4,741 bases of DNA from a virus (taxonomy: Duplodnaviria; Heunggongvirae; Uroviricota; Caudoviricetes): the IMG/VR virus record IMGVR_UViG_2724678985_000016. The stretch is one strand, 5' to 3'. The position numbers were made by a program, and so were the translations under genes. Positions 362 through 4,295 of this stretch are shown piece by piece. Position 1 is the first letter of the stretch. Each line of letters begins with the position of its first letter. The notes beneath the pieces were generated by a model. That model did not search any database, was not told the origin of the DNA, and worked only from the letters and a program-made list of their open reading frames with translations.

Positions 362-1327
362 TTATCCCCTGAAACCAGGCGGAATTTCTGTATCCGGTTC
401 AGAAATATGATTCACACAACGCTGTACAGGTGAACGTCCCAAGCGGATGACCAGTTCGTCCCATTTTTCGCGGAGTTTTGACGGGCTCATGATGTTTTTT
501 ACCCAGAATGGATCTCGCTGTACCCGACCAAACATTTCGCAAATTTGTCTGTGGCTTCTGCCATCCAGCATCCGCATTGTGCGCACGTCATTGGCCCAGG
601 CTGTCCAGTTAGGCTCTTTTGGTCGCATGATCTCTCCATCGTCGCTGGCAGCCTGTTCGTAAAGGTTCACGATCCGCCCCCAAATCCACTGCGCACACGC
701 CAAATCCTCCCTGCTACCCCACTGGCGTTTTTTCGCACTAAACACAACCGCGTCGGGGTTCCGGATTAAAAAATCCTGTTCAGCGGTCTGCGGGTCCGGT
801 TGCGAAGCTTCCGGACGAAAAGTGTTTTTATTCTCTGTAGTAATCTCTGTTGTATTCTCTGTAAGATCATCAGGCCATTTTGACCCGATGACATTGGGTC
901 GTTTTGAACCAATGGAGCGTTTCATTTTGACCTCTTCCATCGTGTCATTTTGACCTGATGGAGCGGCGCATTTTGAACCGATGGATTCGTTCAATTTGCC
1001 ACCATCTAAAAGCTCGTTCCCATAGTTGATCGTGTAGAAATTGGTCATATCGCGCTTTGATTTATTGAGCTTTTCACAACGCAAAAGCCCCAGCGTTTTC
1101 AGACTTGCAAACGCGCGCTTTAACGTTGACTCTGACCAGAATGGGAACTGTTCCAGCCATTGTTCCGTTGTGTTGTAAATCCAGCGAACACCATCACATT
1201 CCATGCCGGAATTGGTATCTCTCAACCAGTAATGCAACTGCTGCAACACAATGGCTTCATTTAAGCCAATCTTCATCGCAAGCTGTGTGTTTATAACCAG
1301 TGGGCGTTCAGCAAAAAGAAGGCTCAT
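362..1327 (-). CDS. Phage replication initiation protein (lambda O-like / replisome organizer), 321 aa from ATG at 1327
   Basis: Long ORF on minus strand (track ORF 362..1381). I place the start at the ATG at 1325-1327 (MSLLFAERPLVINTQLAMKIGLNEAIVLQQLHYW...), which overlaps the upstream gene stop by only 20 bp instead of 74. The N-terminal motif resembles phage replication-initiator N-domains (recalled). The gene contains 23-bp direct repeats at 876..1006 encoding repeated IGSK peptides, the classic ori-inside-O arrangement. Position downstream of cro/cII-like genes fits a lambdoid replication module. Confidence 0.75.
   Translation of the reverse strand: MSLLFAERPLVINTQLAMKIGLNEAIVLQQLHYWLRDTNSGMECDGVRWIYNTTEQWLEQFPFWSESTLKRAFASLKTLGLLRCEKLNKSKRDMTNFYTINYGNELLDGGKLNESIGSKCAAPSGQNDTMEEVKMKRSIGSKRPNVIGSKWPDDLTENTTEITTENKNTFRPEASQPDPQTAEQDFLIRNPDAVVFSAKKRQWGSREDLACAQWIWGRIVNLYEQAASDDGEIMRPKEPNWTAWANDVRTMRMLDGRSHRQICEMFGRVQRDPFWVKNIMSPSKLREKWDELVIRLGRSPVQRCVNHISEPDTEIPPGFRG
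820..1006. other. Putative prophage origin of replication (iterons plus adjacent AT-rich tract) embedded in the initiator gene
   Basis: Iterons at 876..1006 are followed, in the direction of initiator transcription, by an AT-rich tract at 820..875 that contains the short repeat tattctctgta twice (833-843, 858-868). This mirrors the lambda ori organisation (established knowledge); function is inferred. Confidence 0.6.
876..1006. repeat. Iteron array: about 6 direct repeats, 23-24 bp period, consensus roughly CATTTTGA(A)CCnGATGG
   Basis: Seen in sequence: copies begin at 876 (cattttgacccgatg), 900 (cgttttgaaccaatgg), 923 (cattttgacctcttcc), 946 (cattttgacctgatgg), 969 (cattttgaaccgatgg) and a degenerate copy at 992 (caatttgccaccatc). 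Spacing is 24,23,23,23,23 bp. Confidence 0.8.
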
Positions 1328-1829
1328 AATTCCATCCAGCTTTTTGTTGGTATTGCTGTCGATACGCAAGTTTGAAAGCAATTGCTTTTTCTATAAGTTC
1401 GTCAGTTTCACGATCCACTACGGCAGGATCAGCAAAAAGCATTCCGGACTCCACCACATCGCCATATTCTTTGTTTAACCCGGCGATCATGTACGTGATG
1501 CTTTTTCCGTCACTAATTTCACGATACAACCTGAAATCATTAATCCGGATAGCCTCCATAATTGCAGGCACTAGCGCCGTGAACTTTTCACGCTTATCCC
1601 TAGTGTCGATAGCCTTCCAGCGTTCGAATATCTTCACTCGATTAACGCCAAGCGCTCGCTGATCAACCGCGCCACCTTCATCTGTGACACGCTGAACATC
1701 GATGTTCGGGCGCTCTTTCAAAGCCCAGAATGATTCAGTGATTAATATCGTCGCCTGCTCCTGTGTCATTCCTGGTCGACATATCCAGGCATCCAGAGCC
1801 TCACGAGCCTGTTCAGGAGTGATTTTCAT
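1308..1829 (-). CDS. YdaT-family protein (prophage CII-like regulator / toxic protein family), 173 aa
   Basis: ORF with ATG at 1827-1829 overlapping the dicC-like stop by 17 bp (translational coupling). The segment KIFERWKAIDTRDKREKFTALVPAIMEAI matches my recollection of the conserved core of E. coli Rac YdaT (pattern RW...T..REK...L.PAI). Position immediately after the cro-like gene matches the ydaS-ydaT arrangement. Recalled, not searched. Confidence 0.65.
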   Translation of the reverse strand: MKITPEQAREALDAWICRPGMTQEQATILITESFWALKERPNIDVQRVTDEGGAVDQRALGVNRVKIFERWKAIDTRDKREKFTALVPAIMEAIRINDFRLYREISDGKSITYMIAGLNKEYGDVVESGMLFADPAVVDRETDELIEKAIAFKLAYRQQYQQKAGWNYEPSFC

Positions 1830-2040
1830 TGTTCAACCGCCCCGCCCGCTTCGTCTTACGATATTCGTCATAAACCTTGGGATCATACAGAAGCTCGCCG
1901 CCAGATGCCTCCTGTAGACGCATCGCGCGACCTTCAGGAACCAGCTCTTGCCATTGAGAAACAGCAGATGGGTCAACGCCAGCAGCTTTCGCTACTTTGG
2001 CTTTCGTACCGTAAAAATTAATTACGTCTGATTTAAACAT
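1813..2040 (-). CDS. dicC: Cro-like small DNA-binding regulator, DicC/YdaS family, 75 aa
   Basis: ATG at 2038-2040 preceded by GGAGG (TTGGAGGTGCG-ATG); the track ORF begins 9 codons further upstream but lacks an RBS there. Divergent from dicA across a 77-bp operator region. The C-terminal VPEGRAMRLQEASGGEL...YDPKVYDEY matches my memory of DicC/YdaS proteins. Confidence 0.75.
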   Translation of the reverse strand: MFKSDVINFYGTKAKVAKAAGVDPSAVSQWQELVPEGRAMRLQEASGGELLYDPKVYDEYRKTKRAGRLNNENHS

Positions 2041-2117: not shown

Positions 2118-2525
2118 ATGAACGAGAAAACTTTAGGTCAACGCATTAGAGAAAGACGTAAGCAGGTAGGCTTAAGTCAAAACGGTTTAAGCAAAGCTGC
2201 TGGCGTATCTGGCTCATCAATTTCATTATGGGAAAGTGACCATACAGCCCCGCGTGGGCAAAATTTGCATCGCCTCGCCGAGGTATTGCAATGTTCACCA
2301 ACCTGGATACTGTTTGGCGACGAGGACAAAACACCAGCTCCCCCTGTTTCACTCGATAGTGCCTTAGACTTATCGGAAGATGAGTTAGAGATGCTGCGTT
2401 TGTATCGCGCACTTCCTAAATCAGAGCAACAAGCACAACTCAGCGAACTCCGCGCCCGCGTTGAGAATTTTAATCGCCTGTTCACCGAGCTATTAGAGGC
2501 TCGCAAACGCAACAAGCATCAATAA
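2118..2525 (+). CDS. dicA: DicA repressor (XRE-family HTH, cI/C2-like prophage repressor), 135 aa
   Basis: 135-aa ORF, the same length as E. coli K-12 DicA. N-terminal HTH (QRIRERRKQVGLSQNGLSKAAGVSGSSISLWE) and the stretch LHRLAEVLQCSPTWILFGDEDK plus C-terminal LSELRARVENFNRLFTELLEARKR closely match my recollection of DicA. Divergent from the cro-like gene. Confidence 0.9.
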   Translation: MNEKTLGQRIRERRKQVGLSQNGLSKAAGVSGSSISLWESDHTAPRGQNLHRLAEVLQCSPTWILFGDEDKTPAPPVSLDSALDLSEDELEMLRLYRALPKSEQQAQLSELRARVENFNRLFTELLEARKRNKHQ

Positions 2526-2582
2526 TCATCCCTTCACAAAATTTTAAAGCCTTACATTTCAATGTATTGGCTTTATCTTGCG

Positions 2583-2603
2583 CCAATACTTGAGTTTTCT
2601 CAT
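2583..2603. promoter_or_regulatory. Second operator-like site (gccaatacTTGAGttttCTCAt) downstream of dicA, upstream of the dicB-operon promoter
   Basis: Seen in sequence: 2590-2602 ttgagttttctca is identical to 2054-2066; the flanking ccaata is also shared (2048-2053 vs 2584-2589). The right arm is imperfect (CTCAt). The position is analogous to lambda OL relative to cI (inference). Confidence 0.45.
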
Positions 2604-2611
2604 CAAAAAAT

Positions 2612-2641
2612 CTTGACGAAAAATAATGAGAAAACTAAATT
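2612..2641 (+). promoter_or_regulatory. Candidate sigma70 promoter of the dicB operon (-35 TTGACG, about 18-bp spacer, -10 TAAATT)
   Basis: Seen in sequence: TTGACG at 2612-2617 and TAAATT at 2636-2641 (4/6 match to TATAAT), about 75 bp upstream of ydfA and immediately downstream of the operator-like site. Not experimentally positioned here. Confidence 0.35.
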
Positions 2642-2717
2642 ACCTCCATCAACACACCGCACGGTGTTCTCAGCAAACAGTTCCGCTACCCCGGCGTTAA
2701 GGGGAAATGAGGTCAGC

Positions 2718-2870
2718 ATGGATACTATCGATCTTGGCAACAGCGAATCTCTGGTATGTGGCGTGTTCCCCAACCAGGACGGTACGTTCACCGCGATGAC
2801 ATATACCAAAAGCAAAACGTTTAAAACCGAATCTGGCGCGCGTTGCTGGTTAGCCAGAAACACTGACTGA
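2718..2870 (+). CDS. ydfA: YdfA-like small protein (first gene of dicB operon), 50 aa
   Basis: ATG at 2718 with GAGG 7 nt upstream (GGGGAAATGAGGTCAGC-ATG). Protein MDTIDLGNSESLVCGVFPNQDGTFTAMTYTKSKTFKTESGARCWLARNTD matches my recollection of K-12 YdfA. The track ORF 2562..2870 extends upstream but has no RBS there. Confidence 0.8.
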   Translation: MDTIDLGNSESLVCGVFPNQDGTFTAMTYTKSKTFKTESGARCWLARNTD

Positions 2871-3247
2871 TGAGGCTGACGATGGAATTTAAAGATTTAC
2901 CGTCTGATGTACAGAAAACAGCAGCTCATACATTGCATTCTGTGCTGCGAGAAATCGGGAAAGATATTGCAAGCGAGCCAGCAAAAGATCTGGCCCGGAA
3001 AATCAAGACCGCTTTCGTTGAGCTTTATAATGTTGGCACTGACTCTGAAACTGTCGAGACCAAGACCGTAAGTTCACCAATATTCTCACTTGAGCCAGGC
3101 GTATTAGCAGGTGAAATGTGCACCGAGATTTCCAGCGAACTGCTTCCGGTAATACGAGAAGCAATTTGCCGTCGCGGTTTGGATGGAAGTTACGATCATG
3201 ACGTCCTGCAAGTTCTCAGGACAATGGTGACTTCACTGGGGATTTGA
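2870..3247 (+). CDS. YdfB/YdfC-like protein encoded here as one continuous ORF (125 aa from ATG 2870, or 121 aa from ATG 2882)
   Basis: ATG at 2870 overlaps the ydfA stop (TGATG). An alternative ATG at 2882 has GAGG 6 nt upstream. It occupies the position of ydfB+ydfC in the K-12 dicB operon (recalled as two short ORFs of 42 and 72 aa); here no in-frame stop separates them. Confidence 0.6.
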   Translation: MRLTMEFKDLPSDVQKTAAHTLHSVLREIGKDIASEPAKDLARKIKTAFVELYNVGTDSETVETKTVSSPIFSLEPGVLAGEMCTEISSELLPVIREAICRRGLDGSYDHDVLQVLRTMVTSLGI

Positions 3248-3416
3248 TCCCTGCGTCCTCTAACCTTTTGATATAGCGGTCCTCCAAGAAGCGGTAAATT
3301 TTGTCGAAATCATCTTTCCCCTCTGGTTTATTCAGAGGATTACAGGACCCGTAAGTAGCGGCATACATTTCAACCGTTTTATCAAAAATATAAGAGACAA
3401 ATTCTTCTTTAGTCAT
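3216..3416 (-). CDS. Hypothetical acidic 66-aa protein encoded antisense to the dicB operon (moron-like), convergent with and overlapping the 3' end of the ydfB/C-like ORF
   Basis: ATG at 3414-3416 (minus) preceded by AAGAAGGAAATCTAT (SD AAGGA, 7-8 nt spacing). Protein MTKEEFVSYIFDKTVEMYAATYGSCNPLNKPEGKDDFDKIYRFLEDRYIKRLEDAGIKSPVKSPLS has a balanced, protein-like composition. The local sequence appears more AT-rich than its flanks. No homolog recalled. Confidence 0.4.
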   Translation of the reverse strand: MTKEEFVSYIFDKTVEMYAATYGSCNPLNKPEGKDDFDKIYRFLEDRYIKRLEDAGIKSPVKSPLS

Positions 3417-3691
3417 ATAGATTTCCTTCTTGGTTATTCGGAATAAGAAGGATACCACCTCGCCTGACGTGGTTAAAAGCAGGCACACAACACGAAAGCG
3501 CACGGCGAAGTTCGTCTCACTGTACGGTGTCGTTAAATTTAATTCGACCGTGCGCTTCCGGTTGTGGCAACCCGCGAAATGGCGCGGCGGTAAGTATGGC
3601 GGGGTTATTCCTTCCCCGTTGAGGACACCGGGTTGTCAGGTTGACCATACGCTTAAGTGACAACCCCGCTGCAACGCCCTCTGTTATCAAT

Positions 3692-3749
3692 TTTCTGGTG
3701 ACGTTTGGCGGTATCAGTTTTACTCCGTGACTGCTCTGCCGCCGTTTTT
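3692..3749 (+). ncRNA. dicF: DicF small RNA (Hfq-dependent sRNA targeting ftsZ and other mRNAs), including 3' U-tract
   Basis: 3692-3743 (tttctggtgacgtttggcggtatcagttttactccgtgactgctctgccgcc) matches the 53-nt DicF sequence as I recall it, with a possible single difference at the last base. It lies between ydfB/C and dicB as in K-12 and ends in a GC stem plus T5. Confidence 0.75.
3707..3749 (+). terminator. Intrinsic terminator at the DicF 3' end (GGCGG...CCGCC stem followed by TTTTT)
   Basis: Seen in sequence: GGCGG 3707-3711 pairs with CCGCC 3739-3743, followed by g + TTTTT at 3745-3749. DicF is known to be generated partly by termination at its own terminator (established knowledge). Confidence 0.6.
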
Positions 3750-3918
3750 AAAGTGAATTTTGTGATGCGGTGAATGCGGCTAAGCGCACGCGGAACAGTT
3801 AAAACCAAAAACAGTGTTATGGGTGGATTCTCTGTATCCGGCGTTAATTGTTAACTGGTTAACGTCACCTGGAGGCACCAGGCACTGCATCACAAAATTC
3901 ATTGTTGAGGACGCGATA

Positions 3919-4107
3919 ATGAAAACGTTATTACCAAACGTTAATACGTCTGAAGGTTGTTTTGAAATTGGTGTCACTATCAGTAACCCTGTATTTACTG
4001 AAGATGCCATTAACAAGAGAAAACAAGAACGGGAGCTATTAAATAAAATATGCATTGTTTCAATGCTGGCTCGTTTACGTCTGATGCCAAAAGGATGTGC
4101 ACAATGA
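3919..4107 (+). CDS. dicB: DicB cell-division inhibitor (MinC-activating, ZipA-dependent), 62 aa
   Basis: ATG at 3919 with GAGGA 7 nt upstream. Protein MKTLLPNVNTSEGCFEIGVTISNPVFTEDAINKRKQERELLNKICIVSMLARLRLMPKGCAQ matches my recollection of K-12 DicB (62 aa). The track ORF 3814..4107 has a spurious N-terminal extension. Confidence 0.9.
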   Translation: MKTLLPNVNTSEGCFEIGVTISNPVFTEDAINKRKQERELLNKICIVSMLARLRLMPKGCAQ

Positions 4108-4295
4108 ATTCAGCATTTGCGCTTGTTCTGACAGTTTTTCTTGTTTCCGGAGAGCCAGTTGATATTGCAGTCAGTGTTCACAGGACAATGCAGGAGTGTA
4201 TGACTGCAGCAACCGAACAGAAAATTCCCGGTAACTGTTACCCGGTCGATAAAGTTATTCACCAGGATAATATCGAAATCCCGGCAGGTCTTTAA
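4104..4295 (+). CDS. ydfD: YdfD-like small membrane/lysis protein, 63 aa
   Basis: ATG at 4104 overlaps the dicB stop (ATGA), with AAGGA 8 nt upstream. N-terminal hydrophobic segment MNSAFALVLTVFLVSGEPV. Position and sequence fit ydfD of the dicB operon (recalled). Confidence 0.8.
   Translation: MNSAFALVLTVFLVSGEPVDIAVSVHRTMQECMTAATEQKIPGNCYPVDKVIHQDNIEIPAGL

Follow-up and report, generated by a model that had tools for sequence, protein, structure and literature searches.

How is a small open reading frame (ORF) that lies antisense within the early operon of a lambdoid prophage to be understood: as a gene, as the by-product of a regulatory transcript, or as a frame that is open by chance? 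The question is raised by ORF66, a frame for 66 amino acids on the minus strand of a 4,741-nucleotide stretch of tailed-phage DNA (IMG/VR record IMGVR_UViG_2724678985_000016), the whole of which we call the window. It comprises the immunity and early-left region of a lambdoid, Qin/mEp460-like prophage. ORF66 is a genuine protein-coding gene under purifying selection, and we are highly confident that it is conserved, that it belongs to a portable convergent two-gene cassette, and that it always opposes the early operon. Our best explanation taken as a whole, i.e. the conserved cassette gene together with the mechanism proposed below, is one that we lean slightly towards accepting.

Coding constraint on ORF66

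ORF66 runs on the minus strand from an ATG at 3416-3414 to a TGA at 3218-3216, and its product of 66 amino acids is MTKEEFVSYIFDKTVEMYAATYGSCNPLNKPEGKDDFDKIYRFLEDRYIKRLEDAGIKSPVKSPLS. A Shine-Dalgarno (SD) motif, AAGGA, lies at 3424-3428 (minus strand), 7 nt 5' of the start codon. With a plus-strand ORF at 2882-3247, here called the partner gene, ORF66 shares 32 nt (3216-3247), that is, the last 10 codons and the stop of each gene. An earlier first-pass annotation of this DNA had given the same coordinates, strand, ATG, SD spacing, length and overlap of about ten codons, and all of these are confirmed in the sequence. The small RNA (sRNA) gene for DicF (3693-3744) is found 277 nt from the start codon of ORF66, and the two do not overlap. 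The impression that the sequence here is more AT-rich than its flanks is also borne out: guanine plus cytosine (G+C) is 0.35-0.41 over 3250-3499, compared with 0.46-0.49 in the left flank and 0.55-0.57 in the right flank (150-nt windows), a modest difference.

The length of ORF66 by itself proves nothing, since more than 12 unannotated ORFs of 60-112 amino acids are present within the same 4.7 kb. It is conservation, rather than the open frame as such, that marks it as a gene. Neither is it a new gene call. RefSeq/PGAP annotates it as the hypothetical protein WP_000159335.1 (O111 strain 11128; E. coli B REL606), and the PHROG 34441 profile matches it over its full length (residues 1-66 on 1-66 of 66, E=1.5e-50, 170 bits). 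The protein is identical in E. coli B REL606, where the locus is NC_012967.1 1624621-1624821, and in phage mEp460_ev081, in whose record it is annotated. ORF66 is thus an already annotated member of an anonymous family; our literature search found no paper on WP_000159335, Ybl81, ECB_RS08150 or the ORF66 peptide.

The protein and nucleotide search that the first-pass annotation had proposed as a check did return homologues. It covered 5.8 billion proteins plus viral, genomic and metagenomic contigs. Homologues are 88-100% identical in Escherichia, Shigella and E. albertii, 73% identical in Cedecea (loci L002 and L003), 54-57% identical in two unassigned enterobacterial phage contigs (L004 and L005) and about 47% identical in L071 and L072. 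The exact sequence occurs on at least 1000 contigs, and of 5426 complete E. coli genomes 387 (about 7%) contain the region by megablast with a coverage of at least 80%. The family is very narrow: an exhaustive hidden Markov model search of 1.84 billion representative proteins returned about 10 clusters, all of the same family.

Conservation of the frame and its ratio of nonsynonymous to synonymous substitution (dN/dS) had also been named as a check, and both come out in favour of a gene. Among the eight distinct homologous sequences analysed, the ORF66 frame is the sole stop-free frame common to all. Every informative pair gives a dN/dS of 0.1-0.25, and for the window against L002, L004 and L005 dS is saturated. 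Over the 55 codons outside the overlap with the partner, variable columns at codon positions 1, 2 and 3 number 27, 19 and 44. The ATG and a purine-rich SD (AAGGA, GGGAGG or GGAGGA) are retained in all homologues, and in L004 an in-frame stop is present five codons 5' of the start. The low dN/dS, the third-position variation and the sole open frame in eight homologues together identify ORF66 as a gene.

These data also bear on the possibility that ORF66 arose by chance as an antisense frame and has stayed open for no other reason than the youth and near-identity of the DNA among E. coli prophages. Most E. coli copies are indeed 98-100% identical, and the window contains many chance ORFs of similar length. 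However, frame, start and SD are all retained in the homologues of 47-73% identity, from Cedecea and unassigned enterobacterial phages, at saturated dS and with dN/dS of 0.25 or less, and this explanation is effectively refuted.

Different prophages have IS1 inserted into ORF66 near codon 16, following ...GATAAAACGGTTG, and both orientations of the element occur among them (L067:3972-4316 and L068:4001-4300). Interrupted proteins of this kind (P0006 and P0007) come from Shigella sonnei. The AT-rich insertion site may be an IS1 hot spot.

The cassette, the partner gene and their contexts

In the Qin prophage of E. coli K-12 (NC_000913.3) the sequence is near-identical to the window over the stretch that begins with the ydfA leader and ends with the ydfA stop, and then again from about 3490 through dicF and dicB; the alignment shows no similarity between the ydfA stop and about 3490. 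As the flanks are near-identical and the interval is unrelated, we read 2871-3500 as a replacement cassette of about 620 bp which, judged by this alignment, is found in place of the ydfB-ydfC of K-12 Qin. The first-pass annotation knew of no K-12 gene where ORF66 lies, and rightly so: ORF66 has no counterpart in K-12 Qin, which holds the unrelated ydfB-ydfC there. Its description of the neighbouring gene as ydfB/C-like has to be abandoned, because the interval does not align with K-12, no homology to YdfB or YdfC is seen, and the gene instead matches PHROG 33007. The features of the window are as follows.

362-1381, minus strand: O-like replication gene, carrying 23-nt iterons
1308-1829, minus strand: YdaT-like gene
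1813-2040, minus strand: cro-like gene
2118-2525: cI/DicA-like helix-turn-helix repressor gene
2718-2870: ydfA/DUF1391
2871-3500: cassette, i.e. partner gene, ORF66 and the block upstream of ORF66, delimited by alignment to NC_000913.3
2882-3247, plus strand: partner gene, 121 amino acids, PHROG 33007
3216-3416, minus strand: ORF66, 66 amino acids, WP_000159335.1, PHROG 34441
3693-3744, plus strand: DicF sRNA gene, Rfam RF00039 (72.5 bits, E=3.6e-15)
3919-4107: dicB
4104-4295: ydfD/DUF1482
after ydfD: exonuclease gene, start only

The DicF match clears the RF00039 gathering score of 48. Next to it, a sub-threshold match to STnc100 (RF02076; 34.5 bits against a gathering score of 47, E=6e-5) was seen at 3742-3951 (plus strand), spanning the dicF-dicB spacer and the start of dicB in a region that is almost identical in K-12. 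Inside the O-like gene (362-1381, minus strand), at 868-999, a motif (CAT...CATTTTGACC.GATG) is directly repeated four to five times at intervals of 23-24 nt, resembling lambda-type ori iterons.

The cassette is found with at least four cI/cro types, and also in loci that lack ydfA, dicF and dicB, including Cedecea and other enterobacterial phages without dicF and dicB. By this distribution the cassette is a mobile module within the mosaic early operons of temperate lambdoid phages. The link to the dicB operon specifically, as drawn in the first-pass annotation, therefore does not hold. In L004, L005, L062 and L071 the partner directly follows cI and is the first early-left gene, with ORF66 convergent to it; in L004 the 149 nt between cI and the partner hold a TTGACT-16-TAATAT promoter with a GTAAG/CTTAC palindrome. 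In the window the partner is the second gene after the early-left promoter. In Cedecea the pair is flanked by cro and a cII-like gene, with ORF66 again facing the early promoter. In all five contexts ORF66 is head-on to a repressor-controlled early promoter and is located in the operon's first kilobase.

At the right end of the cassette, at 3489-3508, a stretch of roughly 20 nt (AACACGAAAGCGCACGGCGA and its complement) is common to the window, L011, L062 and K-12 (L007), and its copies include cassettes in phages without dicF. It may act as a boundary sequence for recombination at this mosaic joint.

The partner or its C-terminal domain is present beside ORF66 in every locus that has an intact ORF66 homologue and readable downstream sequence, and this pairing holds even for the 47%-identical homologue in L071. 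The two genes are convergent with overlapping 3' ends in every lineage (32, 56 and 35 nt, and full read-through in Cedecea). PGAP places the start of the partner at 2882, and an alternative in-frame ATG is found at 2870. RefSeq lists it as a hypothetical protein, one UniRef entry names it 'Ybl81', and it has no Pfam match. Its predicted architecture consists of an N-terminal helical hairpin (residues 1-53), a disordered linker and a C-terminal helical hairpin (residues ~85-120) with the motif E.LP.I..AI...G..G.Y....V...M.TSLG.

The two ends of the partner have different histories. Its N-terminal domain of about 50 amino acids (2882-3040; MEFK.LP.DVQKTAAHTLHSVL...EPAK.LA..I..AF.ELY) recurs with unrelated C-termini in P0072-P0075, which are proteins of Enterobacter and Serratia phages (PHROGs 9419, 1363 and 2151), and this indicates a recombination joint inside the partner gene. 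ORF66 travels specifically with the C-terminal domain, which is conserved in L002-L005 and weakly in L071. In L004 and L005 that domain is fused to a different N-terminus (the L004 partner was missed by tblastn and recovered through protein alignment). In Cedecea (L002:3568-3897; L003) the partner is about 50 amino acids long and the C-terminal domain stands almost alone, while in L071 it forms a 63-amino-acid protein of weaker similarity. The domain is itself constrained, with dN of 0.2 against saturated dS between the window and L002.

As a test of ORF66 it had been suggested that the neighbouring gene might simply extend through it. This is true of the Cedecea frame, which has no stop and stays open antisense through the whole ORF66 homologue (109 codons); at that locus the gene caller picked the ORF66 homologue. 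In the window the partner stops at 3247. The first-pass annotation had further suggested that ORF66 is an independent accessory (moron) gene. It is accessory, being mosaic and absent from K-12, but it is not solitary, since it forms half of a two-gene convergent cassette.

Expression, possible action and competing explanations

An early-left promoter of the dicBp/PL type, TTGACG-17-TAAATT, is found at 2590-2641 (plus strand), upstream of ydfA, and its transcript runs head-on into ORF66. It is homologous in position to dicBp of K-12, a promoter that has been described (PMC10448788). Copies of TTGAGTTTTCTCA flank it at 2590-2602 and 2627-2639 (minus strand), and further copies are located in the divergent cro/cI region at 2054-2066 and 2123-2135 (minus strand); these are presumably repressor operators, equivalent to OR and OL. 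Direct control of ORF66 by repressor and operator was considered and rejected, as the motif occurs solely at the cro/cI and early-left promoters and nowhere near ORF66.

Upstream of ORF66, a non-coding block at 3449-3475 (minus strand), CCAC.TCAGGC..GGTGGTATCCTT, is nearly invariant across lineages in which synonymous sites are saturated. It includes an extended -10-like element, TGgTATCCT (3457-3449), and a short palindrome, CCAC/GTGG, and is a candidate promoter or control element. Part of it can also be read in another way. A 5'-leader hairpin is predicted at 3424-3452 (minus strand); its arms would be UCCUUCUU (3452-3445) and AAGAAGGA (3431-3424), with the SD buried in the pairing, and it would be relevant only for transcripts starting upstream of 3452. 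The hairpin is predicted in six of eight homologues (the window, L064, L066, L011, L004 and L005, not L002 and L071), with weak z-scores (-0.3 to -2.1). Two compensatory changes, C-G to U-A and U-A to A-U, separate the window from L004, in a comparison where only two or three lineages are independent and MAFFT shifts the 3' arm.

The product of ORF66 is a predicted soluble helical hairpin. The AlphaFold2 model, built from 7 sequences, has helices at residues 3-22 and 31-54 followed by a flexible tail (predicted local distance difference test score 82.8). The protein is hydrophilic, with an isoelectric point of 5.3, a net charge of -1.5 and a grand average of hydropathy of -0.68. Of the acidic, helical protein foreseen in the first-pass annotation, the helical part agrees with the model and the acidity is only mild. 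Searches of Pfam, NCBIfam and PADLOC gave no significant match to ORF66, and the PADLOC-DB defence profiles returned nothing at E<=1 for ORF66 or the partner. PDB sequence profiles matched ORF66 only at E>0.4, and Foldseek of the model against PDB and BFVD gave no match with E<1. A duplication of one hairpin as the origin of ORF66 and the partner was rejected (hhalign probability 0.1%).

From these observations a mechanism can be proposed. The partner would be read from the repressor-controlled early promoter as the first or second gene of the operon. ORF66 would be transcribed from its own weak promoter in the 3449-3475 block when the early promoter is shut, i.e. in the lysogen; this timing is suggested because there is no repressor operator near the block. 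When the early promoter fires, the partner would be made together with an antisense read-through of ORF66, and head-on transcription and sense/antisense pairing would then turn ORF66 off. ORF66 itself would act by binding another protein, since it is too small and featureless for an enzyme. Its foremost candidate target would be the helical hairpin at the C-terminus of the partner, and that both are predicted helical hairpins counts in favour of this proposal. The package of expression timing, transcriptional interference and protein partner is tentative, and we would rather doubt than assert that all of it is right.

Several observations weigh against this mechanism. A consensus scan (at least 9 of 12 positions) found no sigma-70 promoter upstream of ORF66, its sole match nearby being an intragenic 9/12 at 3416-3387, and the extended -10 candidate is weak (TATCCT, with 3/6 of a -35). 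The promoter candidate and the SD-burying hairpin draw on the same bases, and at most one of the two readings can hold. No intrinsic terminator-like site is present on either strand at 2500-3950. The evidence for an interaction of ORF66 with the partner consists solely of co-occurrence and fold type, and the co-occurrence might only reflect the physical overlap of the genes, which recombination could not separate. Further, some prophages of Shigella and E. coli have ORF66 broken by IS1, and the viral contig L019 has a frameshift in the partner (at 4295) next to an intact ORF66. Both kinds of damage indicate that neither gene is indispensable in resident, possibly defective, prophages.

The same evidence has to be weighed for a different explanation, in which ORF66 is an independent lysogenic-conversion or defence moron, expressed by the prophage and directed at the host or an incoming phage, for example in superinfection exclusion or the inhibition of a host protein, with the partner as a merely linked neighbour. 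Many genes adjoining lambdoid repressors are of the exclusion or host-inhibitor type, and genes expressed by a prophage typically lie, as ORF66 does, next to the immunity region and against the direction of the lytic operon. ORF66 is present in some and absent from others of otherwise identical prophages, its G+C is below that of its flanks, no operator is near it, and its product is small, soluble, mildly acidic and helical. Yet the protein has no match in PADLOC, Pfam or NCBIfam and no structural relative, and the gene lacks a terminator of its own. The same convergent, overlapping companion is found in every lineage examined, even at 47-57% identity, which is unexpected for a free-standing moron. 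We regard this explanation as unlikely, with a chance that should still be taken seriously.

The position of ORF66 next to dicF raises the question whether its RNA rather than its protein is what matters. In K-12, DicF is processed from a polycistronic precursor RNA (PMC5069750, PMC10448788). Any transcript of ORF66 would, by its position, necessarily be complementary to that precursor in this prophage, as the first-pass annotation had pointed out. The antisense transcript, or convergent transcription as such, could then be the functional product, a brake on leaky expression of the early operon (here dicF-dicB) to which the peptide is secondary. Consistent with this, ORF66 is head-on to the early promoter in all five contexts with the 3' overlap preserved, the upstream non-coding block is conserved, and the transcript would here be fully complementary to the DicF precursor. 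However, purifying selection on the amino acids and an intact frame, start and SD in all lineages would not be needed for a function in RNA only, and pairing of DicF with the translation-initiation region of ORF66 was rejected as no better than that of shuffled sequences. We consider an RNA brake very unlikely.

A dedicated role of ORF66 in tuning DicF/DicB is unlikely as well, given that the cassette is also found in phages without dicF; damping of DicF/DicB thus cannot be its core role. Under the mechanism that we favour, the ORF66 mRNA may, through its complementarity to the DicF/DicB precursor, lower leaky expression of dicF-dicB as a side effect. The locus was also compared with sRNA-17, published from an mEp460-like prophage of E. 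coli K1 (PMC7719688). The two were rejected as the same locus, as the sRNA-17 primers and sequence are absent from the window.

A bolder version of the favoured mechanism would make the pair an undescribed bistable or antagonistic lambdoid module, in which the helical-hairpin protein ORF66, expressed in the lysogen, and the partner, as the first protein of the early lytic phase, would be antagonists, either one neutralising the other. Through head-on transcription and the common 3' ends, expression of one gene would shut out that of the other, and the pair would form a protein/protein and antisense switch gating the early-left operon, which here comprises dicF-dicB, exo, xis and int. Alternatively, it might act as an addiction or abortive-infection pair. 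This proposal is quite improbable as it stands. If it were true, the pair would be a new small regulatory module in lambdoid early operons; if not, ORF66 is one more uncharacterised accessory gene.

ORF66 and known phage systems

What makes ORF66 of interest is the conserved convergent overlapping pair and its presence in E. coli B. Its location, the dicBF region, has been much studied, and identical copies occur in E. coli B REL606 (and, by inference, BL21) and in enterohaemorrhagic E. coli O111. The 'ydfABC-dicF-dicB' operon is mosaic, and in many strains a conserved antisense coding gene overlaps the DicF precursor. Models of DicF/DicB regulation derived from K-12 should hence not be carried over unchecked to strains that have the cassette.

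Compared with database families, ORF66 is PHROG 34441 itself, and it is identical to WP_000159335.1. Among characterised phage genes, lambda rexAB and sieB of lambda and P22 are similar in being variably present accessory genes of the immunity/early-left region that are plausibly expressed when the lytic promoters are repressed. They are co-directional with cI/PL, whereas ORF66 is antisense, overlaps its partner, has no detectable terminator and shows no similarity to them.

Classic morons bring their own promoter and terminator. ORF66, in turn, is present or absent between homologous genomes, through replacement of a two-gene cassette rather than simple insertion, and has a distinct, if modestly so, base composition. 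Where a terminator of its own would be expected of a moron, its 3' end instead overlaps the convergent gene.

The type I toxin-antitoxin systems txpA/RatA and bsrG/SR4 of B. subtilis likewise consist of two small convergent prophage units with overlapping 3' ends. In such systems a hydrophobic membrane peptide is the toxin and an RNA the antitoxin. In contrast, ORF66 and the partner are both hydrophilic, helical and under purifying selection at the protein level, and we rejected an assignment of the cassette to this type on these grounds.

Units placed head-on to an early lytic promoter are known from P2 and 186, with their face-to-face lytic and lysogenic promoters, from the lambda oop RNA against cII, and from P22 sar. 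For ORF66, as for these, interference or antisense pairing would be expected. The antisense products of those phages are non-coding RNAs or a repressor gene, whereas the ORF66 unit encodes a conserved 66-amino-acid protein and interference is only inferred.

The closest comparison by position is ydfB-ydfC of K-12 Qin. These genes are the positional equivalents of the cassette in the dicBF operon, without sequence similarity to it. Both ydfB and ydfC are co-directional with the operon, whereas the cassette is made up of one co-directional gene and one that is antisense.

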